Part shown: positions 261-16,652 of the stretch, one piece after another
How the letters are laid out: the number at the start of each line of letters is the position of its first letter
Numbering within the stretch: position 1 is the first letter of the stretch
NCBI GenBank assembly: GCA_964562615.1
Contig: CAZLUD010000001.1
Location: 1 to 36,936, forward strand
Length of the DNA stretch: 36,936 nt
Source: an uncultured Candidatus Saccharibacteria bacterium
GTDB taxonomy: Bacteria; Patescibacteriota; Minisyncoccia; Phycocordibacterales; UBA12088
Reading direction: 5' to 3'
Notes under the pieces: generated by a model
What the model was told of the DNA's origin: nothing
Database searches by the model: none
Seen by the model: the letters and a program-made list of their open reading frames with translations, nothing else
Program-made: the position numbers and the translations under genes

Positions 261-262
261 AG

Positions 263-2188
263 TTATTTCAAGAAGCTTAGACCTTGTTCTTTACCCCAAG
301 CGATAAACGCCTCTACGATTTCATCAAGGTCGCTTAGGTACTTTGGATTGCCGTCTGCGTCTTTTACGATTACCCCTTCTTTATCTTTCTCAAAAATGTA
401 ATCGCCACTGTTGTTTTTGAACGATTGCTTTTGAGTAGCAAAGAAAATCGGATAATCGGCTACCTTTGGACTACCACTTTTATCAAGCTCTTCTTCGGTC
501 CACTTCTGTAAGAAGATGATTGATGTCTTTGTACCTGTGTGTGGCTTGAACGAGTTTCCGTGAAGCCCTACGACCGCAAGGATGCGTGCCTTCTGCATTA
601 TGTGTTTACGAACATACTCTTGGCTTGTGTTGTTGAAGATACCTTGAGGCAACACAACCGCTAAGCGACCGCCTGCCTTTACGAAATCAAGATTACGTTC
701 AATGAAGAGCAAGTGTCGCTCAACTTTGTTTTGAAGTTTTCCTTTAGCATTTTTCCCGAGCACATACTGAGCCAAGAGATGCTTCTCTTTGATTTCGCCT
801 GCGAAAGGCGGGTTGGCAAGAAGGATGTCAAAGCCGAGGTGTTGAAGCGTATTTTGATTGTGTCGGTTTGTTTCAAAGTCATCAAACTCACGGACCAGTT
901 TGAGGTCGGCAAGTTCGCTCTTGAAGCGGTCGGACCATTCTCGTGTATCAAGCGATGATGACTTGAAGATATGGCTCTTACCATCGCCTGCGATGAGCAT
1001 AATGGCACGGCTGATTTTGGTTGATTTCTCGTCAAAATCTATGCCCCAAAGATACCTGCTTGCATATTCTTTGCGTGCTTCGGCGGTAGGAAGCTTTTTC
1101 CAAACGTATTGCATAGCGTGGACCAAGAACCCTGCACTACCGCACGCTGTATCTATCACATACTCTTTCTTTTGCGGATTGAGCATCTGCACACACATAT
1201 CAATCACGACACGAGGTGTGAAGTATTGACCCTTCTTACCTTTAGCAACATCAGGAAGTAGGTACTCAAACGCTTCGTCAATGATGCGTAGGTTCGCACC
1301 AAACAAGCGGACATCCTGAAGCTCGCCAACACACACTGAAAGATGCTCAGGGCTGAGTTTTATCTTGTCGGTACGCTCAAACACATCGGACCACTCTGCT
1401 TTTGCTTCTTCAAAGAGTTCATCAATGATGCGTTTTGTTTCTTCGGGTTTTCCTGTCGGGCTCTTTCTGAAATGTAGTTCTTCGTTCGGTCGGCTCAATG
1501 CTTCTTTTTCATCGTAGAGCTTGGCGTAGATAAGCTTGAAGATTTCATCAAAGCTATCATTTCCTGAGTTTGCAAGCACAAGCTCTTCCAGTGTCTTGAT
1601 TGTTTCCTTGAGGTCATCTTCTCGCAGGTCCTTCAAGGTCTTTCGTTTTGCGAGCACATCAGCCACATCTTCATCTGAAGCAGGGATGTCGTCCAATGTG
1701 TCATCAAAATCCTTTGGATACGGACGGTAAAGGATGAGGCGTGTTTTGCCGTTTACCGCAACGCCTACGGGAGCACCTTCAGCATTGAGATATGACTTCA
1801 ACTGTTGCACGTCGTTCTCTTCATTCGGAGCTTTTACCTCAATGATGATTTTCGGGGTAATGCCGTCTGGTCGGTACACAACAATGTCTGCACGCTTCAC
1901 TTCACGTCCAAAGTTGACGTGTTTTTCAAGTTCAATGAGGTCTTTAGGGTATTTGTAGTGCTTTGTGAGCTTTACAAGATAGAGCTGTCGGACGATTTCT
2001 TCGGGAGCACCTTTCCCAGTTTTAGCATCGTAGACCTTCTTTTCTTCATCCAGTTTTGAAATCGCTTTGATGTAGAACTTTCCCTCATCTTTCTCGTAGA
2101 TGTCTATCTTAGACAAGTCATCAAACATCAAAAGGTCCTGCTCAGGATTTTTGAAGATTTTATTTAGGATTTGTTGTGTTGTGTTCAT
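263..2188 (-). CDS. Fused PD-(D/E)xK (HSDR_N-like) nuclease domain plus gamma-class N6-adenine DNA methyltransferase; BcgI-A-like / type IIB or type I-like R-M enzyme
   Basis: 641-aa ORF. The N-terminal block KRADIVVYRPDGITPKIIIEVKAPNE gives D-x15-E-V-K. The methyltransferase motif I is VIDTACGSAGFL and motif IV is LANPPFAG (NPPF). A separate S-like gene follows directly. Confidence 0.8.
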   Translation of the reverse strand: MNTTQQILNKIFKNPEQDLLMFDDLSKIDIYEKDEGKFYIKAISKLDEEKKVYDAKTGKGAPEEIVRQLYLVKLTKHYKYPKDLIELEKHVNFGREVKRADIVVYRPDGITPKIIIEVKAPNEENDVQQLKSYLNAEGAPVGVAVNGKTRLILYRPYPKDFDDTLDDIPASDEDVADVLAKRKTLKDLREDDLKETIKTLEELVLANSGNDSFDEIFKLIYAKLYDEKEALSRPNEELHFRKSPTGKPEETKRIIDELFEEAKAEWSDVFERTDKIKLSPEHLSVCVGELQDVRLFGANLRIIDEAFEYLLPDVAKGKKGQYFTPRVVIDMCVQMLNPQKKEYVIDTACGSAGFLVHAMQYVWKKLPTAEARKEYASRYLWGIDFDEKSTKISRAIMLIAGDGKSHIFKSSSLDTREWSDRFKSELADLKLVREFDDFETNRHNQNTLQHLGFDILLANPPFAGEIKEKHLLAQYVLGKNAKGKLQNKVERHLLFIERNLDFVKAGGRLAVVLPQGIFNNTSQEYVRKHIMQKARILAVVGLHGNSFKPHTGTKTSIIFLQKWTEEELDKSGSPKVADYPIFFATQKQSFKNNSGDYIFEKDKEGVIVKDADGNPKYLSDLDEIVEAFIAWGKEQGLSFLK

Positions 2189-2440: not shown

Positions 2441-3556
2441 TTATGCCTTTGTGGATAACCGATACGGTACAAAGTCATCAAGTGCGTCCTTTATCTGTTT
2501 GACCCAGCCGTGATAGGTCTTGCCTGAAATGTCATCAAGGAACTTCAAGTCCTCAGCTATCCGATACCAAGTACGAGGCGTTGAGTATCGCTCAATCACG
2601 CTTCGTGTATCTCTAATGCCTTCCTTACTGAGGACCCTGAGCCCTACAAGATAGAGTGCGTGTTTCGGCTTGATGTCTGGCTTGTTCTTGAAGATAGTGT
2701 CCAACGTTTTCTTTGGATTACTTTCTACGTCAAACAAGAACAGGTTTTTGCTCGTGATAAGTTCGTCCCAGTAGTTCAACAGAACTTTCTGACATAGGTC
2801 TTTTTTGAACACGTCTTTGAAAGTCGGGTCCGTGGCAAAGCCAAGTGCCTTGAGCGTAGCGTTCATCTTTACCTTCTTTGCGAGCCGAGCTTCAATACGC
2901 AACACTTCCTTCTTTTCCTTTTTTGTGAGCGTTTCAAAGAGCGACATCTGCACTGAGTTTTGGTCCTTATCCATAGCTCGCTTGTCTGGTTTTTTGAGGT
3001 CTTGCACTTTGTCGTATACAACGAGTGAGTGCGAGTTCGTGTAGAACTGAAGCGAGTGTCCGCTATTCCTGAAGCTGTCCCTATTGAGGTCCATTTTCTT
3101 GCTGACATCAATCTTGTGCAGTTCGGTAATCACAAAGCTTGAGGTATAGCCCTTTGCAAGCTCAATGTTTTTAGCAGGATGAAAAGCAGACACCTTCGCA
3201 TTTCGTAGGTCCTCTTTGGAAACAGCAACGCTCATTTCAAGCATCGCTTCGTGAAGAGCTGATATGACTTTCTCAAAATCCTTTTCCTCAACCTCTTCAA
3301 CGTTGTTTCCGTAGAGCATTTTTGCGACTGAAAACTCTATCTTGAGCGGTATTTCACTACCGTTTCGTGTCATCCTTTTCATCAGGGTTAGGCGTGGCTT
3401 GTAAGTGCCTTCCTTCTTGTCGGATGCAGTAGGGTTGTTCACGCATTTTACGAGATAGTTTCCAGCCATTTTGAGGATGTTTGCATTCGGCGTAAATGCT
3501 TCGGGGCGCAACCTATACGACCCTCTCGGTATGGTTAGTATTACTGTGTCCAACAT
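2441..3556 (-). CDS. Replication initiation protein, phage/plasmid gene II/X (Rep_trans / Phage_CRI-like) family
   Basis: The start was moved to MLDTVILTIP, a typical N-terminus for this family. Other family-like blocks are IEFSVAKMLYGNNVEEV, VSAFHPAKNIEL and GHSLQFYTNSHSLVVYDKVQDL. The assignment is by pattern memory only. Confidence 0.5.
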   Translation of the reverse strand: MLDTVILTIPRGSYRLRPEAFTPNANILKMAGNYLVKCVNNPTASDKKEGTYKPRLTLMKRMTRNGSEIPLKIEFSVAKMLYGNNVEEVEEKDFEKVISALHEAMLEMSVAVSKEDLRNAKVSAFHPAKNIELAKGYTSSFVITELHKIDVSKKMDLNRDSFRNSGHSLQFYTNSHSLVVYDKVQDLKKPDKRAMDKDQNSVQMSLFETLTKKEKKEVLRIEARLAKKVKMNATLKALGFATDPTFKDVFKKDLCQKVLLNYWDELITSKNLFLFDVESNPKKTLDTIFKNKPDIKPKHALYLVGLRVLSKEGIRDTRSVIERYSTPRTWYRIAEDLKFLDDISGKTYHGWVKQIKDALDDFVPYRLSTKA

Positions 3557-3839
3557 AGTCATTACTTTTTTCATTCTGATAAGACAAAATCTCGTCGGCT
3601 TTTGCGATAATCGCTTCCTCAATCTGAAGAGCGACCTTTCTGTTTATCGGATGAAAAACATTGAAGTTTTTACCGCTCAAGCTCTTTGTGGGATAGGTAA
3701 TCCGATACCCATTTCCATTGAGTTTTGTATGTATACCGATTGAGCCAAGATACAAGCTGTTTTCTACGACAATGCTTGCCATAGCGACGAGCCCGTTATT
3801 CGGCTTGATTGGTACGATTTGTATTTCCGTTATGTGCAT
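3513..3839 (-). CDS. spoVG: SpoVG family protein
   Basis: MHITEIQIVPIKPNNGLVAMASIVVENSLYLGSIGIHTKLNGNGYRITYPTK...FHPINRKVALQIEEAI aligns by eye with SpoVG (MEVTDVRLRRV..GRM.AIASITLD..FVVHDIRVI.G..G.FVAMPS.....HPIN). Confidence 0.75.
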   Translation of the reverse strand: MHITEIQIVPIKPNNGLVAMASIVVENSLYLGSIGIHTKLNGNGYRITYPTKSLSGKNFNVFHPINRKVALQIEEAIIAKADEILSYQNEKSNDYVGHSNTNHTERVV

Positions 3840-4041: not shown

Positions 4042-5217
4042 CTATGTCTTCAAGTATTTCTTATTGATAGCAACTGACTTGGTAGAAACATCAAGAAAAT
4101 CCTTGATTTTTGTGTCCTGTGCGATGATACCGTTTACCTTTTTTCCTGCCTGATAGACCTTGTTTTTTGACAGTTCTTCAATCTCTTCAAAAGAGTAGTT
4201 CCAGTCCTCAAGCACTTCATCGTTAGCCCATACCTTGTGCGTATCCTTGAATAGGGTCCGCATCAGCTTGTGTGGGTCGCTTTCTTCTTTAGTTGAGATG
4301 AGTACTGGCACGCCCATAAAGTGCAAGGTCCTCGTGCTGTCATCAAAGCGTAGTTCGCTCGTGTCATCGGTATCGTTTGCTATCAGTTCCTTCGTGATAA
4401 ATGCGTGGACCCGTTGAGCGTAGCTTCTGAAATCCTTGACCTTGAACATCACGACATCGTTATCTGATTTTTCGCCTTTCCGTATCTTTTCCATTTCCAC
4501 ATAAACACCTACAAAGTTGAGCCAATCCCAATGAAAAGCGTTCTCTTTTTGAGTTTCTGCTTGCACTTCGGCTTTCAGCTCTTCGGGCTCAAAAACAAGC
4601 CGTTCTACAAAGGGTAAATGTTCCCAAGCACCCCACGGCTCAACCTGTTCTTTGCGTTCAAGTTTTCGCTCTTCTTCATCTATGACCTCGTAGGTAGGCG
4701 AAAAGGTAAAGTTGCCGTAAATGTTATGGTTTTTCTTCTTGTTATCTACAAAGGGCTCCACCTCTTTTTCGTGTCCGCTTGCCTTCAGGTGTCGGGCAAC
4801 ATCAAACAGGTCGCTATCAAAGGCATAAAGCGGATTTGATGACAAAATCCGTCCTTGCATACGGTCGTGAACTTCTTGGACCGCTCGGATAACGGGCTGA
4901 TACTTTTCAGTGATTTCTTGCGTTTGCTTGATAATCGGCTCGTATTGCTTGATGACTTTTTCAGCGATAGGGATGAGTTTGTTTGCCGATTGAGTAAGTT
5001 CCTTCATCGCTTTCGTGTTCATCAGCTCGTAGGTCTTTCGTGCCATTTCCCGCTGAGTTTCAAGTGCCTGTATGAAGGGCTTAGTTTGTGTCATTTCTCG
5101 GACCGTTTTTGTGTATTCGGCAAGACCACGAAAAAAGTCCCAACTATCTTGTAGGTTGATGAAGCTGTTGTACTGTTGCTCTACGATTTTGAGAGCTTTT
5201 TCATTACTTCCTTTCAT
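4042..5217 (-). CDS. Hypothetical protein (391 aa)
   Basis: Long uninterrupted ORF with non-repetitive composition. It is helix-rich at the N-terminus. No family recognised by eye. Confidence 0.6.
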   Translation of the reverse strand: MKGSNEKALKIVEQQYNSFINLQDSWDFFRGLAEYTKTVREMTQTKPFIQALETQREMARKTYELMNTKAMKELTQSANKLIPIAEKVIKQYEPIIKQTQEITEKYQPVIRAVQEVHDRMQGRILSSNPLYAFDSDLFDVARHLKASGHEKEVEPFVDNKKKNHNIYGNFTFSPTYEVIDEEERKLERKEQVEPWGAWEHLPFVERLVFEPEELKAEVQAETQKENAFHWDWLNFVGVYVEMEKIRKGEKSDNDVVMFKVKDFRSYAQRVHAFITKELIANDTDDTSELRFDDSTRTLHFMGVPVLISTKEESDPHKLMRTLFKDTHKVWANDEVLEDWNYSFEEIEELSKNKVYQAGKKVNGIIAQDTKIKDFLDVSTKSVAINKKYLKT

Positions 5218-5310: not shown

Positions 5311-5796
5311 ATGACTGCTCGGACAAAAACACTAAAAGTGCTTGATGTTGGCAAGTATTTCATACACCTTGCTAATCAAGACAAAAAGCCGATTACCAAC
5401 AAAAAACTGCAAAAGCTTGTTTATTACTCACAAGCTTGGTCTTTGGTGCTGAATGATAAAAAGCTTTTCAGTGAGCCGATAGAGGCGTGGGTTCACGGAC
5501 CCGCTGTTCGTAGCTTGTATGTTCAATACAAAAACTTTGGCTTCAATCCAATAACGGAAGATGTTGATGCAAGTACTATCTCGCTTTCTGCCGATAACAA
5601 GAAGCTTCTTGATGAGGTGTGGAAAGTTTACGGCAAACTTGATGCGGGTTATTTGGAAATGCTCACTCACTCAGAACAGCCGTGGCAAGAAGCAAGAAAC
5701 GGACTACAAAGCTACTCAAACTCAAACAATGAGATAACGCCAAAAGCTATGAAGAGTTTTTATTCTGCAAAGCTTGAAAAAGCCCAGAAGAAGTAA
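5311..5796 (+). CDS. Panacea (DUF4065 / SocA-GepA-like) domain protein, antitoxin-like
   Basis: KKLQKLVYYSQAWSLVLNDKKLFSEPIEAWVHGPAVRSLYVQYKNFG is the hallmark DUF4065 block. Confidence 0.75.
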   Translation: MTARTKTLKVLDVGKYFIHLANQDKKPITNKKLQKLVYYSQAWSLVLNDKKLFSEPIEAWVHGPAVRSLYVQYKNFGFNPITEDVDASTISLSADNKKLLDEVWKVYGKLDAGYLEMLTHSEQPWQEARNGLQSYSNSNNEITPKAMKSFYSAKLEKAQKK

Positions 5797-5804
5797 AAAC
5801 TCCA

Positions 5805-6248
5805 ATGGTAGACATTCCTAAACAGGTTGCTAAGACCGCTGATGATGATAGTGAACTACCGCAAACTGTTGCGGAAATACCTCAGGATGTAGAAGCCCCT
5901 GAGGCAAATCCTTATGTCATATCTTTTGCCAAATACAACGAAAAAATGTGTGAACTCACACAACTCAATAACAATAAAGCGAAGCGAGCAATAGAAACCC
6001 TAAAAACTATCGGAACGAAGGTCCGTTCAACTGCTGATTATCAAAGACATTCTGTGGACCGTATTCCTGTAAGGTGCGAGGGAGAATACAAAAAACTCTT
6101 CAAGGGCTTAGAGGACGACATTGAACTAAAGGAAATCAAACTGCAACAAAGTGCAAGGGTGTTCTATTTTGACATTGAGCCCGAAAGGACTTTTTACGTC
6201 GTGGCTATTACTGACAATCATCTTGAAACTGACAAGGTTAGACGGTAG
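5805..6248 (+). CDS. Hypothetical protein; candidate toxin partner of the Panacea protein (RelE/ParE-like C-terminal pattern)
   Basis: It starts 8 nt after the Panacea gene stop. It has an acidic, probably disordered N-terminus. The C-terminal ARVFYFDIEPERTFYVVAITDNH resembles the terminal beta-strands of RelE/ParE/Gp49-type toxins, but weakly. Confidence 0.4.
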   Translation: MVDIPKQVAKTADDDSELPQTVAEIPQDVEAPEANPYVISFAKYNEKMCELTQLNNNKAKRAIETLKTIGTKVRSTADYQRHSVDRIPVRCEGEYKKLFKGLEDDIELKEIKLQQSARVFYFDIEPERTFYVVAITDNHLETDKVRR

Positions 6249-6690
6249 TGGTTTCAAGACCAAGCATTGAAATAAGACATGAAAACTCAAGTTCTTGCTT
6301 TATGCTGTTCCAATCAACGGTTCTCAACTCGGACAGTAGAGGGAGCCCTATAAGTTGGTTAGAGGTTGCGAGTATCCTGTCAAAGGGATAATGCATTGAA
6401 AACGTTAGGTTTTTTCCTTCTAACTGACAGTTCTGAAGTAGATAGTTCAGAAATGCTCTTTTTTCAGCAGGTTCAGAACTATTCTCAAAAATCGTTCTTG
6501 CCCTACGAGCTACAGAAATCACTGTGGCAACGGTAGTCTGGTAATCGTGATCTGCTTTTGAATGTTCAGACATTTCAATTCCTAGGACTTGTATTTGGTC
6601 CTGATACTCTTGATGCTTTTTGTCATACTTGTCCTTAGTAATCCACCGACGATCACTTTTTTCTTTTGTGGAGTATGATTCTTGCTCATT
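6238..6690 (-). pseudogene. C-terminal remnant of a serine recombinase (no catalytic domain, no start codon)
   Basis: The frame is open from 6690 with no ATG until 6573. The translation is NEQESYSTKEKSDRRWITKDKYDKKHQEYQDQIQVLGIEMSEHSK...SSEPAEKRAFLNYLLQNCQLEGKNLTFSMHYPFDRI, which resembles the coiled-coil/C-terminal region of large serine recombinases. Confidence 0.45.
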
Positions 6691-7434
6691 CTATTTAATC
6701 AAATCCCAATTATTCAAGAAGTAGCTCATATCGTGTCCACCGCCAAGGAATATTTTTCCCTCACGAATCTTTATGGTTAGCGCATATCCAGTTTGATTGT
6801 TCACTGCATATACAGCACCTTCTTTTATCTTTCGTTCAACTTCACTTGAGGGTAGGATAACGAATTTATTCTCTTTTTGGCGTAGTACTAAAATGTAGAA
6901 AATATTTCCCTGATTGTGACGTTCGAATGAGACTTTACGTATGTGGAAATTGTACACATCAAATTTGTTGGAGTTCGAGGTTTTAACCTGAATACCAAAA
7001 AATTTATTATCCTTGATCGCTGAAATATCCACTCCAACATCCACGCTCATTATACTTGCGTTGTATCCACGAAAAAGAAGCTCGCTAGTCACCAAATGTT
7101 CACCACCTTTACCTGTGTATCCACCCTCAACAATTATTTTTTCATCTTCTACTTTCTCTTTTTCAACAATTTTATTGATTGCTTTCTCAGTTGGTTTTAT
7201 GACCACCTTCTGATCATTGAGTGTAAAAGTACCTTTTGATGTTTGCACGAAATCAGATGCCTTACCCTTATTCTTGATATCCATATACATCTGAGCGCCC
7301 ATGGTTGCCTCGGGGACCGCACTTTCAGTTACAAGTAAGCCACCTTCTAGGGCTAGTCTTGTGATCTCAGAAACATGCAGGGGTTTACCTGCTTTCTTGA
7401 GGACCTGTATTGCTGATGATTTGAAGGTGTTCAT
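6691..7434 (-). CDS. HARE-HTH domain fused to a PD-(D/E)xK-type endonuclease domain
   Basis: The N-terminus AIQVLKKAGKPLHVSEITRLALEGGLL...VPEATMGAQMYMDIK...FVQTSKGTFTLND matches the HARE-HTH pattern. The C-terminus GGEHLVTSELLFRGYNASIMSVDVGVDISAIKDNKFFGIQVKTS gives an E...D...QVK nuclease pattern. The start lies 3 nt after the hsdR stop. Confidence 0.65.
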   Translation of the reverse strand: MNTFKSSAIQVLKKAGKPLHVSEITRLALEGGLLVTESAVPEATMGAQMYMDIKNKGKASDFVQTSKGTFTLNDQKVVIKPTEKAINKIVEKEKVEDEKIIVEGGYTGKGGEHLVTSELLFRGYNASIMSVDVGVDISAIKDNKFFGIQVKTSNSNKFDVYNFHIRKVSFERHNQGNIFYILVLRQKENKFVILPSSEVERKIKEGAVYAVNNQTGYALTIKIREGKIFLGGGHDMSYFLNNWDLIK

Positions 7435-7437
7435 AGA

Positions 7438-10407
7438 TTATTTTTTCATTTTCTTAACCACAAACTCGAACACACGTTCTTGTACAAACTTCTTAAGCTC
7501 TGGACTTTGGTCAAGTTTTTGATAAAGGCTAAAGTGCTTATCAAGCACACTCACGAGCTCATCCTGGAAGAGCTGATCGAATTTCAACTTAGCGGCATCT
7601 TTGCTGTTGTTCATCACTGAACCCTGAAGGACCTCACTTTCAAGTAATCGCTTACTCAAGTCATTAAGAATCACTCGATCGCCATCATTGAAGCTTGTAC
7701 CGTATCGTTCATTTACTTCTTTGATAATTCGAGACAAAGCATCCTTCTCTTCTTCAGAAGGTGTCTTACCGTCTCCACCGCCCATAGGCTCAATAAGGCC
7801 TTCTGCATTTTCTAATTGAACATGCATTTCACCTTTCTTTTCCACTCGGTATGTTTCCATGTCTATTGCCTGAAGGACCTCATACGGTAGTGGGTTTTCA
7901 CGCTTAGGAAGCTTTCTGATCAGATACTTCAAGAATATAAATAACTTTTCCAACTGAGGATCTTCGAAGGTCACAATCTGTGAGATGAATGCGTACTTCT
8001 TGAGATAATCAAATACCGTAGACTTGAAACTTTCCATTTCTTCTTCAGTAAGATTTTCTTCGTTGATTCGAGAAACCACGCTATCAATGATGTAGTTTGG
8101 CTTGTCAGGAGTTGCCTTTGAATACAGCTCATCGATGAATCCGTTCACTTCAAAATCAGTGAAGAACTTAAAGCCACGCACATCTCGCTCGAGATCGTGC
8201 AGGATGTTTGGATCTGTCGCTTCCGAGAGGACTGTAGTTGTGTAGTAAGGCTGGAAAGCATCCTTGATATCATCAGTCAGGTTTACGAAATCAAGAACAA
8301 AGGTTTCTTCTTTATTATATGTAGTTCGATTGAGACGAGATAGAGTCTGGACCGCACCAACGCCACCAAGTTTCTTATCTACGTACATTACCGATAGAAG
8401 TGGCTGGTCAAATCCAGTCTGGAACTTCTCAGCTACGATCAGGAACTTGTAGTCATCATTTTTGAATTCTTCAGCAGTCCGACTCTCAGGAACCTTGTTC
8501 ATCTGACCTTCTGTATATTCAAGCTTGGTGTCGACATCCTTTACTGTTCCAGAGAAAGCCACCAACGCTTTGTGAGCATATCCCTTTTCTTTGAGATATT
8601 TATCAAACGCAAGTTTGTACCTTACGGCATGGAGTCGCGACTTGGTTACCACCATAGCTTTTGCCTTGCCGTTAATAAGCGATGCAATCTTTTCTTCAAA
8701 GTGTTCAACCATGATCGCTACCTTCTTGTCGATAGCATGTTCATGTCGCTCAACGTATCCAACCATAAGTCGCTGAGCCTTCTTCTTGTCGAATTCCGGA
8801 TCGTCTTCAACCTTCTTCAAGAGTCCGAAGTAAGTTTCGTATGTCGTGTAGTTCTTGAGCACATCGAGAATAAACTTCTCTTCAATAGCTTGCTTCATTG
8901 AATAGAGGGAGAAGGGGCCAAATTTACCTGTTACCGCATCTTCAGTACCGAAGAGCTCAAGAGTCTTCTGTTTTGGAGTAGCTGTAAAGGCAAAGAATGA
9001 AAGATTTGGAGATGCTACTTTTCTCGCCTTCATGCGTTCAACAATCTGATCCTCAATCGTTTTAAATGCCTTCTCTTCATCTTGGCTTTCTTTTTCTGCC
9101 TCATCGAGGGTGAGAACCTGTCGCAAATCGGCCGCCGATTCACCTGATTGTGATGAATGTGCCTCATCAATAATCACTGCAAATTTTCTACCTTCAACTT
9201 TTTCTATAGCATCCACAATAACTGGAAACTTCTGCAAGGTTGTGGTGATGATCTTTACTCCAGCTTCAAGTGACTCCTTGAGCTCTTTACCACCATTCTC
9301 GACATGCTTAACAAGACCAGTTACCTGGCTAAAGCTTTTAACGGTATCTGAAAGTTGTCTATCAAGAACTCGTCGATCAGTTACAACTATCACACCATCA
9401 AACACATTCTTTCCTTCAGTGTCGTGAAGTTCAGCTAATCTGTGTGCGGTCCAAGCAATAGTATTACTCTTTCCGGACCCAGCACTGTGTTGGATCAAAT
9501 AGTTTTTACCTGCGCCTTGAACTTTGGTATCTTCGACGATTCTTTTCACTGTCTCGAGCTGGTGATATCGAGGAAAGATAACTTTCTCTTCCTTTCGCTT
9601 TTTACCATTCTTGTCTTCCTTTTCTTCGGTTACATCCTGTATGAAGTTACCGATCAAATCAAAGATACTATCCTTGGACCAGATCTCTTCCCAGAGATAA
9701 TGGGTTTTATATTTTCCTTTTGGTGCTTCAGGATTGCCAGACGATCCATTATTACCCTTGTTGAATGGTAGGAAGTAAGTGGTAAGTCCTGAAAGTCGAG
9801 TAGTCATGTATGCTTGCTCAGTGTCGACAGCAAAATGTGTGAGGCATCTCTTGAACCCGAGCAACTTTTCTTTCTGGTCACGATCTGTTCTGTATTGAGA
9901 GATTGCGTTGATGACATTCTGTCCGGTGAATTGATTCTTGAGTTCAGCGGTAAATAGGGGGAGACCGTTTACAAAGATCACTGTATCGATGGAGTTCTCA
10001 TTCTTCGCACTATATTTGACCTGGCGCATTACGCTCAGAATATTCCCTGCGTAGTCGGCAAGTGTCTCAGGATTTCTATCGTTTTCTGGTTTGAAATATG
10101 CAAGCTGGATAGTTACACCTCTATCCTTTATACCTTCCCGTAAAACACTAAGAAGACCACGAGAAAGAAGCTCTTCATCAAGTCTAGCCAAGAACCTTTC
10201 GGCCACATTGTCGCCATACTGTTCGACAAGCTTATCCCAGTTATCCTTTTGGGTAGTTTGAATAAACTCGAGAACCAACTCTGTATCCATACAAAGCTCT
10301 TTGTTGTATGAAGAAGTTGATCGAGTGCGGTATCCATGAAGACCCTTGAGTTCTTGCTCAATAAATTCTTCAAATCCTGATTCTTTTGTGTTTGTTTTTG
10401 TTGTCAT
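7438..10407 (-). CDS. hsdR: Type I restriction enzyme R subunit
   Basis: 989 aa. The N-terminal nuclease motif is DTVIFVNGLPLFTAELK, the Walker A motif is HSAGSGKSNT, and the DEAH box is VIIDEAHSSQSG. Helicase C-terminal blocks are also present. Confidence 0.9.
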   Translation of the reverse strand: MTTKTNTKESGFEEFIEQELKGLHGYRTRSTSSYNKELCMDTELVLEFIQTTQKDNWDKLVEQYGDNVAERFLARLDEELLSRGLLSVLREGIKDRGVTIQLAYFKPENDRNPETLADYAGNILSVMRQVKYSAKNENSIDTVIFVNGLPLFTAELKNQFTGQNVINAISQYRTDRDQKEKLLGFKRCLTHFAVDTEQAYMTTRLSGLTTYFLPFNKGNNGSSGNPEAPKGKYKTHYLWEEIWSKDSIFDLIGNFIQDVTEEKEDKNGKKRKEEKVIFPRYHQLETVKRIVEDTKVQGAGKNYLIQHSAGSGKSNTIAWTAHRLAELHDTEGKNVFDGVIVVTDRRVLDRQLSDTVKSFSQVTGLVKHVENGGKELKESLEAGVKIITTTLQKFPVIVDAIEKVEGRKFAVIIDEAHSSQSGESAADLRQVLTLDEAEKESQDEEKAFKTIEDQIVERMKARKVASPNLSFFAFTATPKQKTLELFGTEDAVTGKFGPFSLYSMKQAIEEKFILDVLKNYTTYETYFGLLKKVEDDPEFDKKKAQRLMVGYVERHEHAIDKKVAIMVEHFEEKIASLINGKAKAMVVTKSRLHAVRYKLAFDKYLKEKGYAHKALVAFSGTVKDVDTKLEYTEGQMNKVPESRTAEEFKNDDYKFLIVAEKFQTGFDQPLLSVMYVDKKLGGVGAVQTLSRLNRTTYNKEETFVLDFVNLTDDIKDAFQPYYTTTVLSEATDPNILHDLERDVRGFKFFTDFEVNGFIDELYSKATPDKPNYIIDSVVSRINEENLTEEEMESFKSTVFDYLKKYAFISQIVTFEDPQLEKLFIFLKYLIRKLPKRENPLPYEVLQAIDMETYRVEKKGEMHVQLENAEGLIEPMGGGDGKTPSEEEKDALSRIIKEVNERYGTSFNDGDRVILNDLSKRLLESEVLQGSVMNNSKDAAKLKFDQLFQDELVSVLDKHFSLYQKLDQSPELKKFVQERVFEFVVKKMKK

Positions 10408-10408
10408 A

Positions 10409-11650
10409 TTATTCGCTGTAAATGTTATATATCAAGTGGTGTATCTTTATTGTCTTGCCAGAGTCCTCAGGGAGAGTGTGATCGGATACAAAGTGGTTAC
10501 TGCTCAACTGTTTGAATCCTGATTTGTATTGCGCGTGTTTTTGAATGATGTCTGGTATTTGAGTTAGTATCTTTGAAAAATCCCTATTCTTTGAAAACAT
10601 AATCACGACGCCATAGTTTTGTCTCCAGGTAACATATCCCATTAATTGATCTATAGTATCTAGATATATTTTTTCTCCACCCCAATTTTTACATTCAAAA
10701 ATCAAAATTTCTCCCTTCTCGATCTTGAGATGTATATCTGTTTTACCTTTTTTAACAAAAGTCTCTCCCGTAGCATTGCCTTCAAAAATACCATTTAGCG
10801 CAGAAAGGATCACATCACGAAGTTGCTCTTCTCCTAATTGTTTATAAGCACCAGGAGTCCTCTCAAATGTTCTGCATTGATTATCGACGAATCCTAAGAT
10901 ATCTTTCAAAATCGATTCCTCAAGCGTATACTCTTCTGGTAATTTCGGGGTTGGTTTTACAATATGAACAAACTTTTTTACGTCAACATGGATTTTTGTA
11001 GCTGAAGGACTAGGCTTCTGTTTCAACGGTATTTTTATCTTCTGAGTTAGCGTATTTAACTTTTCCTTGTCGCTTGCTAATTTTTCTTTTCTTTTAGCAA
11101 TCCCATCTTTTATTGTTTTCAAGAGAAGAGCGTTTCCGGATTCAATACTAGAGTTCTTTTGATTCAGACTCTCAATAAGTCTTTGGGATTTTGTGTTGAT
11201 CTCGTTTGCAATACTGTCTTCGCTAGAGTGGCCACCATACCACTTAACGTCAAAAGAAAATGAGATCTCGTTTGGACCATAGACGACTCTTTTATCAAAA
11301 CCATCCATATGGTGCACAGGACCAGATAACTTCTTTAGCCAATCCAAATTAGGGTTGCTTTGTATCGGAATAGAAACTACAGCTGACTCATATTCAAAAT
11401 CGAGGTCACCTTCGTGGCGGTAAAATTCGTCACGTTGATGAGCGGGCACTCGTCGAACTTCTTTCTTCATTTCATACGACAAGTCCGCTGAATCGAATGC
11501 TAGTGGGACCAGAGCATATTTTTGACAATAGAAATTCGCAAGATCATCTATTTCTGATCCTAAAATTTGCTCATCAGACTCCCGCAAGATGTCTTGATTG
11601 AACATCTCGATAGCTTTTCTATAATAATCGTCAAAAGTTGGTCCAAACAT
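10409..11650 (-). CDS. Uncharacterised 413-aa protein with a C-terminal PD-(D/E)xK nuclease-like motif, embedded between hsdS and hsdR
   Basis: The gaps are 4 nt to hsdS and 1 nt to hsdR. The motif D305-x13-E319-C-K321 lies in TDIHLKIEKGEILIFECK (nt 10688-10738), preceded by the helix GEEQLRDVILSALNG. The N-terminal ~200 aa are unrecognised, and a Lys-rich linker lies in the middle. Confidence 0.5.
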   Translation of the reverse strand: MFGPTFDDYYRKAIEMFNQDILRESDEQILGSEIDDLANFYCQKYALVPLAFDSADLSYEMKKEVRRVPAHQRDEFYRHEGDLDFEYESAVVSIPIQSNPNLDWLKKLSGPVHHMDGFDKRVVYGPNEISFSFDVKWYGGHSSEDSIANEINTKSQRLIESLNQKNSSIESGNALLLKTIKDGIAKRKEKLASDKEKLNTLTQKIKIPLKQKPSPSATKIHVDVKKFVHIVKPTPKLPEEYTLEESILKDILGFVDNQCRTFERTPGAYKQLGEEQLRDVILSALNGIFEGNATGETFVKKGKTDIHLKIEKGEILIFECKNWGGEKIYLDTIDQLMGYVTWRQNYGVVIMFSKNRDFSKILTQIPDIIQKHAQYKSGFKQLSSNHFVSDHTLPEDSGKTIKIHHLIYNIYSE

Positions 11651-11654
11651 ATAT

Positions 11655-12887
11655 TTATACTTTAATTTTTCCTGTTACCACACTGGAAATAAGTGAGGAC
11701 TTGAACTCCTGTAAAAATTCAATTGATCTATTAATATCAGAAATCAGTTTTTCAAAAACTTCCATTTTTTCGTCCAATGATTTAACAATTTTTATTTGCT
11801 CTTCTATTGGTGGGTAGGAAATCATTTGATTCCCAATAAATTGCCAATTTGCTCGAGGCATCTTTGTCCCATAGGTGGAATCATTAATCGCTTTTATAAA
11901 ATCTTTACTTAACAATTTATAAAATAAATACTTTGGAATAACCTTGCCCTTTTTGGGTACAAGAGTCAGGAATTCACCGCTACAAACACCATCAAAATCC
12001 ACAGACAAAACCTTTGCTAAATATGGTCTTAATTTCCCAAAAAGCACATCTCCTTTGTAAAATATATTTACCGAGCTTTCAGGTTCAGACTTCTCTTTAG
12101 AATCAACAATTTTACCAGTGAGGCTTTCTACATTCTCAAGGCCTATGTATTTCAGATTTGCAGGGGCAATATCTAATTTTATTTTCCTTTCTGGCGCTAT
12201 ATATTTTAATTTTTCGGTACTTCCAAGAACATTTGTAACTGATTCGTTAATAGTTTCAGATTTCTTCTCTTTTAGAAGCTCGATCAACTTTTGTTTCTTC
12301 TCAATGATTTGATCGATTGAAAATGTTTTTTCATCAAGAAAAGCTACTATTGCTTTCTGTTGATTAAGGGGAGGTATAGGAACCGGTTCTATCTTTAGGA
12401 GATCTGAATTTATGGATTCTCTCAATTCCATTATTCCTTTACCAAGTCTCCCTAAGGTTTTTTGCCACGATTTATTTCTAAATAAATAATGGTAATAATC
12501 AGCAAATATTTCTTTATTTCTCGGATAGTAAATAATATATACAGAACTTGTAACACCAAGCTCTTTTGACTGTCCTACAGAACCAATTACAAGATTCATG
12601 CTATTTAGGACAATGTCTCCAGCGTGAACTATCTTATAGTTCTCAGGTCGATCAGAACTCTTATTACCAACATCACCCTTATCCGCATATCTAATTACAC
12701 CAACATCTTTCATTACAGAAAGTATATTGTCGGTTACGAGTTTTTTGTTTTTTTCTACCCTTTCAACTAATACAGACCGAAGTGGCCCAACTTGCCAATC
12801 TTTCGGAACTTTTCCAAACCACTCAACACCTGAATCTTTGTATTCAGGATATTTCTCATATTTCTTTGTAAGTTTGAGTGTTTGCAT
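11655..12887 (-). CDS. hsdS: Type I R-M specificity subunit
   Basis: 410 aa with two TRD-like halves separated by conserved helical spacers (LNQQKAIVAFLDEKTFSIDQIIEKKQKLIELLKEKK and EEQIKIVKSLDEKMEVFEKLISDINRSIEFLQEFKSSLISSVVTGKIKV). It sits between hsdM and hsdR. Confidence 0.85.
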   Translation of the reverse strand: MQTLKLTKKYEKYPEYKDSGVEWFGKVPKDWQVGPLRSVLVERVEKNKKLVTDNILSVMKDVGVIRYADKGDVGNKSSDRPENYKIVHAGDIVLNSMNLVIGSVGQSKELGVTSSVYIIYYPRNKEIFADYYHYLFRNKSWQKTLGRLGKGIMELRESINSDLLKIEPVPIPPLNQQKAIVAFLDEKTFSIDQIIEKKQKLIELLKEKKSETINESVTNVLGSTEKLKYIAPERKIKLDIAPANLKYIGLENVESLTGKIVDSKEKSEPESSVNIFYKGDVLFGKLRPYLAKVLSVDFDGVCSGEFLTLVPKKGKVIPKYLFYKLLSKDFIKAINDSTYGTKMPRANWQFIGNQMISYPPIEEQIKIVKSLDEKMEVFEKLISDINRSIEFLQEFKSSLISSVVTGKIKV

Positions 12888-12891
12888 ATAA

Positions 12892-14874
12892 TTAGAGTTG
12901 CTTTAGGAGAGTGAGTAATTCATTCTCGACCTTTTCTATGTCAGTCTCTATTTCCTCAAGACTTCGTGGGGCCTCGTACTTGTAGAAGTGCCGAGTGAAT
13001 GGAATCTCGTAGCCCACGATACCAACCTTGCCATCTTTGTGATCTCGGACGGATTCATTGATCCAAGCATCAGACACGTATGGCTTCACCTCTTTATCAA
13101 AATATTCCTTGATATCCATCTCATATGGAACATTCTCAAAATCACGCAAAGACGTGTCTGCCTCTGGATCGCCATTCTTATCAAGTACGATGTCGGCTTC
13201 AGGATCGCTTTCACTAAAGGTAGAGATAATCTTTTTGTAGAGTGCGGCCGTAAGCTTACCGGATACATACTGCCCAACCCTTTTATCGAAAGCTTCTTCG
13301 AATACCTTCTTGCTCATATATATCTGATTCTCGAAAGATTCTATGAGTGTCTTTACGCCAGCTTTAATAGCGCTTGGATCAAGAGTCGCTGTAATCTCTT
13401 TTATTTTCTCTGGAGTGAAATCAAGCTTGAGACGCAGAGGGCGCTCAATGGTGATCTGTCTGTATGCAAAGTCTGTTGTCTTGAAAATCTTTGAGTGTTC
13501 ATTTTCCTCAAATTTCTCGTACAAATCCAAGATTTGTTTTTTGTGTTCAGTGTCAATCTCATGTCGTTTGCTACCAAGGCTCTTGCGAGTCTTCTTGAAG
13601 AGGGCGCGAGCATCGACAAGCTGAACCTTACCTTTTCTTTCTTTTGACTTTCTGTTGGTAACAAACCAAAGGTATGTATTGATACCTGTGTTATAGAAAA
13701 GCTGATCAGGCAATGCGACGATTGTTTCGAGTAGATCCTTTTCAAGAATCCATCTTCGAATCTCACTTTCTCCGCTACCGGCATCGCCAGTAAATAGTGG
13801 GGACCCGTTGTGAACAATCGCTATACGTGAGCCACCATCTTTCTCAGGCTTCATCTTTGAAATGAGGTGTTGCAAGAACAAAAGCTGACCATCTGATATA
13901 CGAGGAGTCCCTGCACCAAAACGTCCTGCGTATCCACGTGTTGCTTCGCGCTCTACAGCATCTTTATCTTTCTTCCAATCAACTCCGTAGGGTGGATTAC
14001 TTAATCCGTAGTCAAATACTTCTGCAAAGAATTGATCGTTGGCGAGTGTACTTGCTTTTGAATGGTCTTTTTCACCACCTCGAATGAGGTCTGGATTATC
14101 ACCCTTGATAAGCATGTCTGACTTGGCCATAGCGTAAGTCACCGAGTTAAGTTCTTGACCGTAAAGGAAAATATCAGCTTCTTTGTTTATGTTTTCTAGA
14201 ATGTAATCCTTGGCAACAGAAAGCATGCCGCCAGTACCGCAGGCAGGGTCATAAATCTTTTTGATAACATGAGGTTTCTTGAGATCCTTCTTGTCAGGCG
14301 AGAAAAGCATCTCAGTCATGAGCCCAATCACATCTCTTGGCGTATAGTGCTCTCCGGCAGTTTCGTTGGACATTTCAGAAAACTTTCGGAGAAGTTCTTC
14401 GAAGATGTGTCCCATCTGATAGTTGTCTACTTTGGAAGGATGTAGATCCACCTTGTTTAATTCCTGGATCACGTAGAATAAGAGATCACCACCTTCGAGT
14501 CGCTCAAGTTGTTTACTGAAATCAAACTTCTCAAAAATGTCTTGGATATTCTTGCTGTAGCCATTGATGTATTGTTTGAAGTTCTTTGCAAGATGCTTTG
14601 GCTCTCCAAGAATAGTTTTGAAATTGTAATCAGAGATATTGTAAAAGGCTGTACCTGAAGTCTTCTTGAGGATGGGGTCAAGGTCATTCACTTTGCCTTT
14701 GTACTCATTGTATTTCTCGAGGACTGAAGCTTTGGTATCGGCAAGAATAGAGTCGAGACGCTTCAAAACCACCAAGGGCAATATCACGTCTTGGTATTCG
14801 TGTTGTTTCCAGCCGCCACGCAAGATGTCGGCTATACTCCAGATCATTGATGTTTTTTGGTTGAAATTTTCCAT
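12892..14874 (-). CDS. hsdM: Type I R-M N6-adenine DNA methyltransferase subunit
   Basis: The HsdM N-terminal pattern is IWSIADILRG. Motif I is IYDPACGTGGML and motif IV is LSNPPYG. Confidence 0.9.
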   Translation of the reverse strand: MENFNQKTSMIWSIADILRGGWKQHEYQDVILPLVVLKRLDSILADTKASVLEKYNEYKGKVNDLDPILKKTSGTAFYNISDYNFKTILGEPKHLAKNFKQYINGYSKNIQDIFEKFDFSKQLERLEGGDLLFYVIQELNKVDLHPSKVDNYQMGHIFEELLRKFSEMSNETAGEHYTPRDVIGLMTEMLFSPDKKDLKKPHVIKKIYDPACGTGGMLSVAKDYILENINKEADIFLYGQELNSVTYAMAKSDMLIKGDNPDLIRGGEKDHSKASTLANDQFFAEVFDYGLSNPPYGVDWKKDKDAVEREATRGYAGRFGAGTPRISDGQLLFLQHLISKMKPEKDGGSRIAIVHNGSPLFTGDAGSGESEIRRWILEKDLLETIVALPDQLFYNTGINTYLWFVTNRKSKERKGKVQLVDARALFKKTRKSLGSKRHEIDTEHKKQILDLYEKFEENEHSKIFKTTDFAYRQITIERPLRLKLDFTPEKIKEITATLDPSAIKAGVKTLIESFENQIYMSKKVFEEAFDKRVGQYVSGKLTAALYKKIISTFSESDPEADIVLDKNGDPEADTSLRDFENVPYEMDIKEYFDKEVKPYVSDAWINESVRDHKDGKVGIVGYEIPFTRHFYKYEAPRSLEEIETDIEKVENELLTLLKQL

Positions 14875-14882
14875 GGTGTTTA

Positions 14883-16019
14883 TTATTTATTAAAGAGATT
14901 AATGTATTCGGTAAGGTAGAAGATTCGATCCTTCTTGAGTCCGGTCTTCTCTGAGAACAAACCGAGCTTAACGAAATCTTTTGTTATTGCTGACGCTGTC
15001 GGGAATGTTACTGAGAGCATTGACTCGATGTCTCGAATCGTTACAACCGGCTGTGAGAACAGACAACGCAAAAGTTCTTTACCGAGTTTTTGGCGTTTGA
15101 TACCCATGCCTTTTTCGATTGTCGTCTCGTACTTCTTTCGGAGGTCGATAATCTTCTCGAGTGTCTGTCTTGAATTCTTTGCAGTCTCAAGCACACCGGT
15201 AAGGAAGAATCTCAACCAGTGTTCGATGTCGTTTGTTTCGCGAACACGTGAAAGACCATCGTAATATTGCGGACGATGCTTTTCAAAGAAATCTGAAATG
15301 TAGAGAGTTGGTTTCTGTAGAATACCGAGGCTTACCAAGTGAAGTGTGATAAGTAGTCGGCCAATACGTCCGTTACCATCGAGGAATGGATGGATGGTTT
15401 CAAATTGGTAGTGAGAAATAGCTATCTTTACAAGGTCTGGAATATCCAGCTCTTTGTTATGCCAAAATCTTTCAAGGTCACTCAAAAGCTCACCAACTTC
15501 TTCGTGGTGGGGTGGAATAAATACCGCATCCTTGAGAGTTGCGCCACCAATCCAATTCTGACTTCGGCGAACTTCTCCTGGAAGTTTTGTGTATCCACGA
15601 ACGCTTGAAAGCAAAACTTTGTGCGTATCTCTTGCAAGTCGCATTGATAGCGGCAACTTTTCAAGCTCTGCTATTGAGTAGTTGATCGCTTTGACGTAGT
15701 TTTGAACTTCTTCCCAGTCATTTCTTTTTTCTGGATCAATTTCGAGCTCAGGGAGAAGTGCCTCATCGAGTTTTGTCTGCGTACCCTCAATCTTACTTGA
15801 TGTGGTAGCTTCTTTTGCGATGTGCATTTTTATGAAAAAATCCACGTCAGGGACCAACTTTGAAAAAGCATTGAGCTCGCCTAGATATCTCATGGCATCA
15901 GCAAGAAGGACATCAATGCGCTTGTCTGTCCATTCAAAACTCTTATTAACCAAAGACGGCTGAAAGCTCTTGTAGCCCTCGTGTTGCTTATGGGTTCCTG
16001 ACTTGTATTCTTCTGTCAT
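14883..16019 (-). CDS. fic: Fic family protein (class II, N-terminal inhibitory helix) with a C-terminal wHTH-like tail
   Basis: The Fic core is [14 protein letters not shown]. The inhibitory motif (S/T)xxxE(G/N) is present as TSSKIEGT upstream of the core. Confidence 0.9.
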
Positions 16020-16075
16020 GCGTGCATCCTATCATTTTAATTTAAAGAATGCAAATTTAAAGTTTAAGGCTTAAT

Positions 16076-16102
16076 CTTTAATTTAGATTTATTAAATTAA
16101 AG
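16076..16102. promoter_or_regulatory. 10-bp perfect inverted repeat (CTTTAATTTA-n7-TAAATTAAAG) upstream of fic; operator candidate
   Basis: Read directly from the sequence. Two direct AATTTAAAG copies also occur at 16039-16047 and 16054-16062. The context is AT-rich, so a chance occurrence is plausible. Confidence 0.25.
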
Positions 16103-16193
16103 ATAGAAAACAGGCACAAAATGCCATAATTTGTTGATAAATAAGGCTTTTATAGGTCTTGGAAGAGACTAAATGAGAGTTAAGATATAGCTA

Positions 16194-16598
16194 ATGACTA
16201 GCAAAAACACTAAAAATCTTGTTTTGATCGGCATTTCATTAGGCGCAACAAAAACAAATGCGCTCGACAGGCGCCTAAAGATCATCAACAAAAGCGACCA
16301 CTCAATTTGTGCGGTGCATATCACCCACAGAGACAGAGATGACTGGGGGCAAAACCTACTCGAGAACAGCACCGGTAGGTGCATATCTCCTGGGCAAAAC
16401 ACAATTGTTAATCCTGGTTACCAGGACGGGTACTGCATGATGCATGTGGCACTCGTACTAACAAGAAACAACCGGTTGGTCGAATTTATCGAACCAAGGC
16501 TGATAAACATATGCGCTGCCGTAACGTATACATTGTTACAGCAGAGTATCCCCACCAACGAAGACGAGGAAGGAGGTGAAGGAAACTACAATCTATAA
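16194..16598 (+). CDS. Questionable hypothetical protein (134 aa); the region could instead be a noncoding transcript
   Basis: This is the only ORF of size in an otherwise empty 0.8-kb stretch. A strong terminator follows 21 nt downstream. No recognisable family or clear RBS. Confidence 0.3.
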   Translation: MTSKNTKNLVLIGISLGATKTNALDRRLKIINKSDHSICAVHITHRDRDDWGQNLLENSTGRCISPGQNTIVNPGYQDGYCMMHVALVLTRNNRLVEFIEPRLINICAAVTYTLLQQSIPTNEDEEGGEGNYNL

Positions 16599-16619: not shown

Positions 16620-16652
16620 CCCACGCACATCACTTGTGCGTGGGTCTTTGTT
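16620..16652 (+). terminator. Rho-independent terminator
   Basis: CCCACGCACA-TCACT-TGTGCGTGGG forms a 10-bp perfect stem, followed by TCTTTGTT. Confidence 0.65.

Follow-up and report, generated by a model that had tools for sequence, protein, structure and literature searches.

Exchangeable defence-type modules in a type I restriction–modification operon of a Candidatus Saccharibacteria bacterium, including a HARE-HTH nuclease that recurs behind restriction–modification systems of several types

Introduction

In a stretch of 36,936 nucleotides (nt) from an uncultured Candidatus Saccharibacteria bacterium (assembly GCA_964562615.1, contig CAZLUD010000001.1, forward strand), here called the window, six minus-strand open reading frames (ORFs) at positions 6691-16019 encode a type I restriction–modification (R-M) system together with three further proteins, namely a Fic protein, a protein of 413 amino acids (aa) that we call ORF413, and a HARE-HTH nuclease. 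This locus raises the question of whether the six products form a fixed composite, along the lines of the composite defence module with R-M-coupled back-up effectors proposed in a first-pass annotation of the sequence, or whether the three extra genes are separate modules that only share an operon with it. The order of the genes is Fic-M-S-ORF413-R-HARE, with successive spacers of 8, 4, 4, 1 and 3 nt, and on this point the ORF list agrees exactly with the first-pass annotation:

14883-16019, minus strand: fic, 378 aa, gene 1 of the operon
12892-14874, minus strand: hsdM, 660 aa, type I methyltransferase subunit
11655-12887, minus strand: hsdS, 410 aa, specificity subunit with two target-recognition domains
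10409-11650, minus strand: ORF413, 413 aa, PDC-S54 family, in the cargo slot between hsdS and hsdR
7438-10407, minus strand: hsdR, 989 aa, restriction/translocase subunit
6691-7434, minus strand: HARE-HTH nuclease, 247 aa, final gene of the coupled block

We consider it probable that the locus combines a complete type I R-M chassis with three single-gene modules, each acquired separately and independently exchangeable, which would provide layered defence through shared expression and would not constitute an obligate machine.

Exchange of modules among related operons

The evidence that carries this reading comes from the close relatives of the operon, whose gene orders are the following (M, S and R stand for the Hsd subunits, and other genes are given by name or number):

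Window: Fic-M-S-ORF413-R-HARE
L091: Fic-M-S-ORF413-RhuM-R-HARE
L095: Fic-M-S-146-365-RhuM-R-HARE
L002: Fic-M-394-S-ORF413-R
L003: Fic-M-108-118-S-ORF413-R-158
L036: M-S-ORF413-242-R-140

Between L095 and the window, the Fic-HsdM and HsdR-HARE portions are 78-81% identical at the nt level, with no homology in the cargo slot. The HARE gene is absent from L002 and L003, where DNA homology to the window ends no more than 3 nt from the stop codon of hsdR, and in L091, L095 and L096 the homology spans both hsdR and the HARE gene, ending at the HARE stop codon. The fic gene is contiguous with hsdM in every close relative of the operon, and ORF413 lies between hsdS and hsdR in the window and in L002, L003, L036, L050 and L091. 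Close relatives thus differ by whole genes, that is, they carry modular cargo and are not one fixed machine. The proposal of a fixed composite is not supported by this comparison, as near relatives swap ORF413 or lack the HARE gene.

Exchange is also visible within the specificity gene: hsdS is homologous to that of L003 (8674-9291) in its N-terminal half only, at 92.7% nt identity, whereas in fic-hsdM and ORF413-hsdR the homology is continuous, the usual pattern when target-recognition domains are exchanged. The GC content of hsdS, ORF413 and the HARE gene is 0.33-0.38, lowest in hsdS (0.33), compared with 0.42 for fic, hsdM and hsdR. The window, L091, L095, L002 and L003 form a natural series with single modules present, swapped or absent, which could tell whether the embedded genes act alone or depend on the host system.

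Organisation and expression of the operon

All five internal junctions have the form TAA-N(1-8)-ATG, and a Shine-Dalgarno-like motif was found at none of them. Among the six genes only fic is preceded by an AGGA, which is also present upstream of the next downstream gene, orf111. Junctions of this kind fit translational coupling, and their sequence suggests that the six genes are transcribed together and coupled in translation, in support of what the first-pass annotation had suggested. A candidate control region lies 5' of fic, and a further co-oriented gene lies beyond the block:

16020-16193, minus strand: candidate operon promoter region, AT-rich, 174 nt
6238-6573, minus strand: orf111, 111 aa, 117 nt past the HARE gene, with its own AGGA ribosome-binding site

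The candidate promoter, TTTAAA-16-TAAAAT at 16061-16034, matches the consensus in 9 of 12 positions, promoter-like sites in general being no commoner than in shuffled sequences. At the other end of the block, no terminator or hairpin is evident in the 117-nt spacer between the HARE gene and orf111 (z = 0.15). With no evident terminator behind the HARE gene and with orf111 in the same orientation, the transcript may run on beyond the block. The product of orf111 gave no domain match, and a homologue of the gene directly follows the HARE gene in L120, overlapping its stop codon; orf111 may thus be a seventh co-transcribed gene.

The HARE-HTH nuclease

The last gene of the block encodes a protein with a winged-helix HARE-HTH domain (residues 1-72; Pfam HARE-HTH, 1e-16), a disordered K/E-rich linker (79-107) and a predicted minimal PD-(D/E)xK nuclease (108-246) with the invariant residues E111, D131, D135 and Q148-x-K150. 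In Pfam the nuclease half scores 16.3 bits for Hjc, against a cut-off of 21.1, and is likewise below threshold for PDDEXK_5, DUF4365 and Cap4_nuclease. There is no Pfam match of the protein to Mrr_cat, and weak matches to Mrr_cat_2 are found in 3 of 46 members of the family. Sequence-profile searches of the PDB returned no match for the HARE family. With the structural model (pLDDT 78), Foldseek relates the nuclease half to Hjc resolvases (E ~3e-4, TM ~0.56 on the target), to the DREN domain of SPARDA and to I-Ssp6803I.

The family is large, with 747 matches in a word-indexed search and 832 representatives in an exhaustive one (50% clustering, E <=1e-10). Among the 120 matches listed of the 747, the proteins are 61-93% identical and ~245 aa long, and the named ones all belong to lineages of the Candidate Phyla Radiation (CPR). 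A preprint on CPR methyltransferases makes no mention of the HARE-HTH nuclease.

The genomic context of the nuclease was analysed in 73 non-redundant loci from CPR metagenome contigs (among L081-L169), for which the 142 proteins encoded upstream of the HARE gene were annotated with Pfam through cluster representatives and singletons; for distant family members the context look-ups gave short contigs only. In 71 of the 72 loci compared, the HARE gene and its upstream neighbour point the same way, and the gap between the two is at most 10 nt in 56 of the 72. A co-oriented amino-methyltransferase gene lies within 8 kb upstream in 43 of the 52 loci with enough sequence, and a DNA methyltransferase gene was found downstream in none of 25. 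Downstream genes are variable (128 proteins falling into 101 clusters). The upstream systems include type I in M-S-R and in R-M-S order, type II-like systems (an N6_N4 methyltransferase, an unknown protein and a D12 methyltransferase), type III Mod-Res, and fusions like those of type IIG or ISP; no C5-cytosine methyltransferase is present among the annotated upstream genes. These operons also carry cargo of many kinds: RhuM, DUF2130, AIPR, ThsB-TIR, SMODS with DUF6602, Shedu SduA, SIR2, Schlafen/AlbA_2 and AAA_15/21. The linkage of the HARE-HTH nuclease is therefore strong, and it is to R-M operons of all types and not to type I specifically.

Near-identical HARE genes, moreover, follow unrelated systems. 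Those of L116, behind a type I system, and L117, behind a type III system, share 99.87% nt identity, and those of L085 (type IIG) and L103 (type III) 96.8%. The window and L090 have 83.7% nt identity in the HARE gene and no other homology. Clustering the HARE proteins at 90% aa identity or more gives 12 clusters with several members, 7 of which follow R-M systems of more than one type. For 12 of the 15 pairs compared, the only homology in contact with the HARE gene is confined to its ORF, and the adjacent flanks are unrelated where the contigs extend; this homology starts 0-7 nt 5' of the ATG (in one pair within the called ORF) and ends 0-3 nt past the stop codon, except in two pairs, where it ends at +27 and +40. 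The idea that the gene is the fixed chromosomal flank of an insertion hotspot was considered and rejected, since the genes downstream vary from locus to locus and near-identical copies are bordered by different sequence on both sides.

On this basis we propose, tentatively and well short of conviction, that R-M systems of CPR/Patescibacteria have in the HARE-HTH nuclease a dedicated companion not recognised before, a highly conserved single-gene cassette coupled in translation to the 3' end of amino-methyltransferase operons and exchanged with ORF-precise boundaries among those of types I, II, III and IIG. If it proved to be a functional partner, it would be a generic, specificity-independent 'fourth component' of R-M immunity, which might clear DNA after restriction or read the methylation state; alternatively, it could be a nuclease driving the exchange of R-M cassettes. 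CRISPR-Cas is rare in CPR bacteria (PMC6509639). A conserved nuclease at the end of R-M operons of all types would suggest that a step of restriction, or of the spread of R-M genes, has gone unrecognised across a very large share of bacterial diversity.

Of the alternatives to purely autonomous modules, the one that survives best is that this nuclease is a true generic accessory of R-M systems, which would either finish DNA already cut by them or use its winged helix to sense adenine or cytosine modification, cleaving DNA found in the 'wrong' state. We regard this as a serious possibility that nevertheless falls somewhat short of an even chance. The orientation and spacing of the gene, the position of amino-methyltransferases upstream and never downstream, the range of types I, II-like, III and IIG without any C5-cytosine methyltransferase, and the invariant catalytic residues would all be as expected. 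HARE-HTH domains have in addition been proposed to read modified DNA, and were noted as fused to endonucleases in R-M systems acting on N6-adenine (PMC4738411, PMC11037411). However, as HARE proteins 60-100% identical accompany operons of different specificity, the nuclease cannot be a cognate sequence-specific enzyme, and cutting dependent on N6-methyladenine would be self-destructive beside Dam-like methyltransferases. Modification-dependent enzymes are expected to stand alone and not beside a methyltransferase (PMC11037411), and by this neighbourhood criterion the HARE-HTH nuclease does not look like one. About 5 of 52 loci, furthermore, lack a recognisable R-M system upstream, and no R-M system accompanies the full-length homologue (51% identity) of a phage contig (L170, 5998-6726), which is flanked by genes for a Prim-Pol/D5 primase-helicase and for the large terminase.

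Relatives of the nuclease domain alone (~40-42% identity) occur in eight other viral contigs (L172-L179). In IMG/VR, the two accessory families have 14 and 9 matches, mostly distant, and neither family is mainly phage-borne.

The HARE gene could alternatively be a selfish or recombination-promoting module, similar to a homing endonuclease, or simply a conserved patch of homology, and not a defence effector; it would then spread between R-M operons or promote their exchange. The layout of winged helix, flexible linker and small nuclease does resemble that of free-standing homing endonucleases. Homology limited to the ORF between unrelated flanks, near-identical copies behind different R-M types, the mixed clusters, the similarity to I-Ssp6803I and (below threshold) PDDEXK_5, and a phage copy lying between conserved modules all fit such an element. 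Yet neither side of the gene carries a conserved target or junction sequence, and the junction alignments show no repeat or att-like element, only TAA-N(1-10)-ATG in A/T-rich DNA. In these compact genomes ORF413 and hsdR have equally ORF-precise boundaries, so that this feature is not specific to HARE, and homing would not account for the exclusive position 3' of methyltransferase operons. We therefore hold this explanation to be unlikely.

In six loci with a wider gap before the HARE gene (29-81 nt; L113, L114, L116, L126, L129 and L133), a conserved box of the 'cactatataat' type is found ~15-20 nt before the HARE ATG; this box is a possible promoter of the HARE gene itself, which would leave only a very short leader.

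The R-M core, Fic and ORF413

Profile searches agree with the product identities given in the first-pass annotation for Fic, HsdM, HsdS, HsdR, the HARE-HTH nuclease and the PD-(D/E)xK-type ORF413. HsdM matches HsdM_N (6e-24) and N6_Mtase (2e-61) in Pfam, and MTase_I PDLC03029 of PADLOC over its full length (2e-264). HsdS contains Methylase_S in two stretches (Pfam) and matches Specificity_I of PADLOC over its full length (5e-79). In HsdR, Pfam identifies HSDR_N, ResIII/SWI2_SNF2 and a T1R_D3-like domain, and NCBIfam TIGR00348 gives 1.5e-63, its 215 bits being under the subfamily cut-off of 284.55 bits. Judged by their domains, the three subunits are canonical, with a predicted N6-adenine methyltransferase, a specificity subunit with two target-recognition domains, and nuclease and superfamily 2 translocase domains all present.

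The Fic protein matches Fic_N (7e-25) and Fic (2e-16) in Pfam, SoFic of PADLOC over residues 15-377 (3e-116) and SoFic chains of the PDB over its full length (~1e-36), and scores 178 bits for the NCBIfam SoFic equivalog, which has a cut-off of 550. Its catalytic loop is intact, a 12-residue stretch fitting HxFx(D/E)GNGRxxR, and a second stretch of 12 residues includes the class II inhibitory motif (S/T)xxxE(G/N) as S-SKI-E-G. These features identify it as a putative class II auto-inhibited AMPylase of the SoFic, defence-associated type.

ORF413 has no match in Pfam or NCBIfam and corresponds to PDC-S54 of PADLOC (1.9e-83, residues 6-411 on profile positions 13-407 of 410). The family, with members of ~413 aa, is present in Bacteroidota, CPR and Proteobacteria, and keeps the core residues E295, D304 and E318-C-K320 invariant. 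In the AlphaFold model (pLDDT 86), an N-terminal alpha/beta domain (1-140) is followed by a helix of ~60 residues (143-203), a disordered linker (211-239) and a C-terminal domain of PD-(D/E)xK fold (244-412). The top Foldseek matches are the type II restriction endonucleases OkrAI and BamHI (E = 7e-3); no match reaches E <=1e-3, which leaves the N-terminal domain without an assignment, and PDB sequence-profile searches gave only noise. The protein is thus predicted to consist of a sensor domain, a long helix and a PD-(D/E)xK nuclease. PDC-S54 was mentioned in no paper that we found, and the candidate family is now placed in CPR bacteria. With SoFic, PDC-S54 and the HARE-HTH nuclease as their assignments, the description of the three extras as defence-type enzymes appears justified, their activities being predicted from sequence.

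To place ORF413 in context we surveyed 273 relatives (one genome per species) and examined 80 loci, clustering all genes within 6 kb in an unbiased way and annotating the cluster representatives with Pfam; clustering was used in place of single-sequence phmmer searches with the Hsd proteins of the window, which could overlook divergent hsd genes. The commonest neighbours are hsdS (9/80 loci), hsdM (9/80) and hsdR (7/80), and ~90% of the relatives are solo, in variable contexts. The linkage of ORF413 to hsd genes (~9/80, or ~11%) is therefore enriched but facultative, unlike that of PrrC. Conserved linkage of the accessory genes to hsd, as a composite module would have it, is consequently found in part: the HARE gene is tied to R-M systems, although to those of all types, whereas ORF413 mostly is not, and SoFic-like genes are stand-alone in three of four sampled plasmid records, the remaining one lying inside a type I locus.

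In two Mucilaginibacter loci (L019 and L020, 8883-11224), a Fic gene is directly 5' of the ORF413 homologue and there are no hsd genes nearby, so Fic and ORF413 also travel together outside R-M operons. Three of the solo contexts include regulators of the Xre/ImmA type, an integrase or a serine recombinase. In L198 (5057-7236) and L199 (4873-7251), the solo homologue comes right after an Xre-type HTH and a Peptidase_M78 (ImmA/IrrE) domain, separate or fused, and in L199 a serine recombinase adjoins it; this neighbourhood suggests an alternative, regulator-linked context for PDC-S54.

These distributions bear on the possibility of an integrated guard, in which one or more accessory proteins would stay bound to HsdMSR until a phage anti-restriction protein inactivates the complex, an event that would release or activate them, as with PrrC and EcoprrI. 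ORF413 occupies the hsdS-hsdR slot, as DarTG2 does in enteropathogenic Escherichia coli (EPEC), and PrrC is likewise embedded in EcoprrI; hsd genes are the most frequent neighbours of ORF413, the junctions all look translationally coupled, which would favour a fixed stoichiometry, and back-up logic of this kind was discussed by Payne et al. 2024 (bioRxiv 10.1101/2024.01.29.577857). However, PrrC is almost exclusively embedded in type I systems, compared with the ~11% of ORF413 loci linked to hsd, unrelated genes replace ORF413 in the otherwise near-identical L095, SoFic is described as a single-gene system, and ORF413 has neither an ABC-ATPase nor an anticodon-nuclease domain. The mostly independent distribution of ORF413 and Fic speaks against a PrrC-like guard role for either, and we give such a role little credence.

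Proposed mode of action

If the modular reading is correct, one promoter 5' of fic would read all six genes, with translation proceeding by stop-start coupling. The R-M complex would methylate self DNA and cut unmodified incoming DNA, and Fic and ORF413 would act independently of it as second-line, probably suicidal effectors. The HARE-HTH protein would be a DNA nuclease independent of the recognition sequence of the upstream system, with its synthesis tied to an amino-methyltransferase operon.

Several observations qualify this reading or weigh against it, some touching the shared expression and others the autonomy of the modules. Same-strand gaps of 10 nt or less are found in 12 of 24 other gene pairs of the window; as compact spacing is common in this genome, five tight gaps in succession are only mildly unusual, compatible with an operon and unremarkable alone. 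A simple scan also detects a few weak minus-strand terminator candidates (3 G-C pairs) within the genes, and there are weak promoter-like matches inside the block, including a 10/12 site just 5' of hsdR. The absence of internal terminators noted in the first-pass annotation thus stands in so far as none of the candidates is convincing, although it is not something that sequence can prove. With regard to autonomy, CPR loci show Fic immediately before hsdM in no fewer than three type I families (the window type and two others unrelated to it, L090 and L087), and this repeated adjacency hints at more than chance co-residence; literature searches for a published Fic-hsdM neighbourhood gave nothing usable. 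The HARE-HTH nuclease, in turn, hardly ever occurs outside R-M or defence operons, which argues that this module is functionally tied to R-M and not fully autonomous.

That the adjacency is incidental, with unrelated neighbours packed together by genome compactness, would agree with the short gaps in half of the other same-strand pairs, but is very improbable given that the extras belong to defence-associated families or recur beside R-M systems in many unrelated contigs, and that the surrounding window is itself a defence island.

The surrounding region

A second R-M system is located at window positions 3-2188 on the minus strand, with a type IIG-like enzyme of 641 aa (HSDR_N_2 + N6_Mtase + Eco57I) followed after 2 nt by the start of an HsdS-like specificity subunit, which continues beyond the window. 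The gene at 3-260 was considered as a second HARE copy behind the type IIG enzyme and rejected, as it corresponds to the N-terminus of this HsdS-like subunit. On the plus strand, at 5311-6248, a SocA/Panacea-domain antitoxin gene (161 aa) is followed 8 nt downstream by that of a 147-aa partner, the two probably forming a toxin–antitoxin pair; they are convergent with the operon and overlap orf111 by 11 nt. Together with the two R-M systems, the Panacea pair makes this region a defence island. The type IIG system is separated from the antitoxin pair by two minus-strand ORFs of ~390 aa (2441-3622 and 4042-5217), with no Pfam match, which may be further defence genes. On the other side, the strongest terminator-like hairpin of the region (16620-16644, plus strand; 10 pairs, 7 of them G-C) closes a divergent ORF of 134 aa (16194-16598) and marks the upstream border of the operon neighbourhood.

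Comparison with known systems

The first-pass annotation did not recognise the architecture of this operon as described, a claim that fails in view of PrrC, DarTG2 and the survey of Payne et al.: the general architecture is already on record, and catalogued families account for two of the three extras. Operons of type I R-M, BREX, DISARM and Hma systems often hold nested genes, 96.7% of which are co-oriented with the host system, and 145 PDC candidates obtained through 'guilt-by-embedding', described as untested, were added to PADLOC (Payne et al. 2024, bioRxiv 10.1101/2024.01.29.577857). The terms 'PDC-S54', 'SoFic' and 'HARE' are absent from the supplementary text of that work. The window operon shares with these embedded genes that its extras are nested in, or co-oriented with, hsdMSR, and ORF413 is a full-length PDC-S54; it differs in having three extras, of which one is nested, while Fic (5') and HARE (3') are strictly flanking.

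The classic nested back-up or guard effector is PrrC in EcoprrI, almost exclusively embedded in type I R-M systems (bioRxiv 10.1101/2024.01.29.577857). In both cases an effector gene is nested in a type I operon, but PrrC combines an ABC-ATPase with an anticodon nuclease, whereas ORF413 has neither and is ~90% solo; Pfam, NCBIfam and PADLOC gave no ATPase or PrrC/RloC match for any of the three extras.

A closer parallel in organisation is the RRDM island of EPEC, RptR-HsdM-HsdS-DarT-DarG-HsdR, which comprises seven ORFs and has a promoter repressed by its first product, RptR; its DarTG2 lies between hsdS and hsdR, at a site called a likely recombination hotspot (PMC12255303). Common to the two loci are several ORFs under one controlling promoter (a candidate one in the window), a defence module filling the hsdS-hsdR slot, and an additional gene at the front. 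In EPEC, however, the first gene encodes a small repressor and not a Fic protein, the cargo is a toxin–antitoxin pair, and there is no trailing nuclease.

SoFic is a single-protein abortive-infection defence (PMC12249575), with which the Fic protein shares the arrangement of Fic_N, Fic and C-terminal domain, the intact catalytic loop and the inhibitory helix motif. It differs in that the small anti-Sofic-like gene 3' of SoFic (PMC12249575) is absent here, hsdM following instead after 8 nt, and in that the Fic protein is under the NCBIfam equivalog cut-off and heads an R-M operon.

For the HARE-HTH nuclease, the best fold matches are the archaeal Hjc Holliday-junction resolvases, the DREN nuclease domain of SPARDA and the homing endonuclease I-Ssp6803I, with a similar E...D...(E/Q)xK spacing, but the matches are modest and none of these proteins has a HARE-HTH domain or an R-M context. 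Mrr and other type IV enzymes with a winged helix share the combination of such a DNA-binding domain with a small PD-(D/E)xK nuclease, and a D...QxK pattern (D131...Q148-x-K150) is present in the HARE-HTH nuclease, although Mrr_cat itself is not matched; unlike them, the HARE-HTH nuclease is almost always beside methyltransferases and does not stand alone (criterion of PMC11037411). Taken with these precedents, the window operon is a further example of how type I operons, and especially the hsdS-hsdR gap, dock other defence genes.

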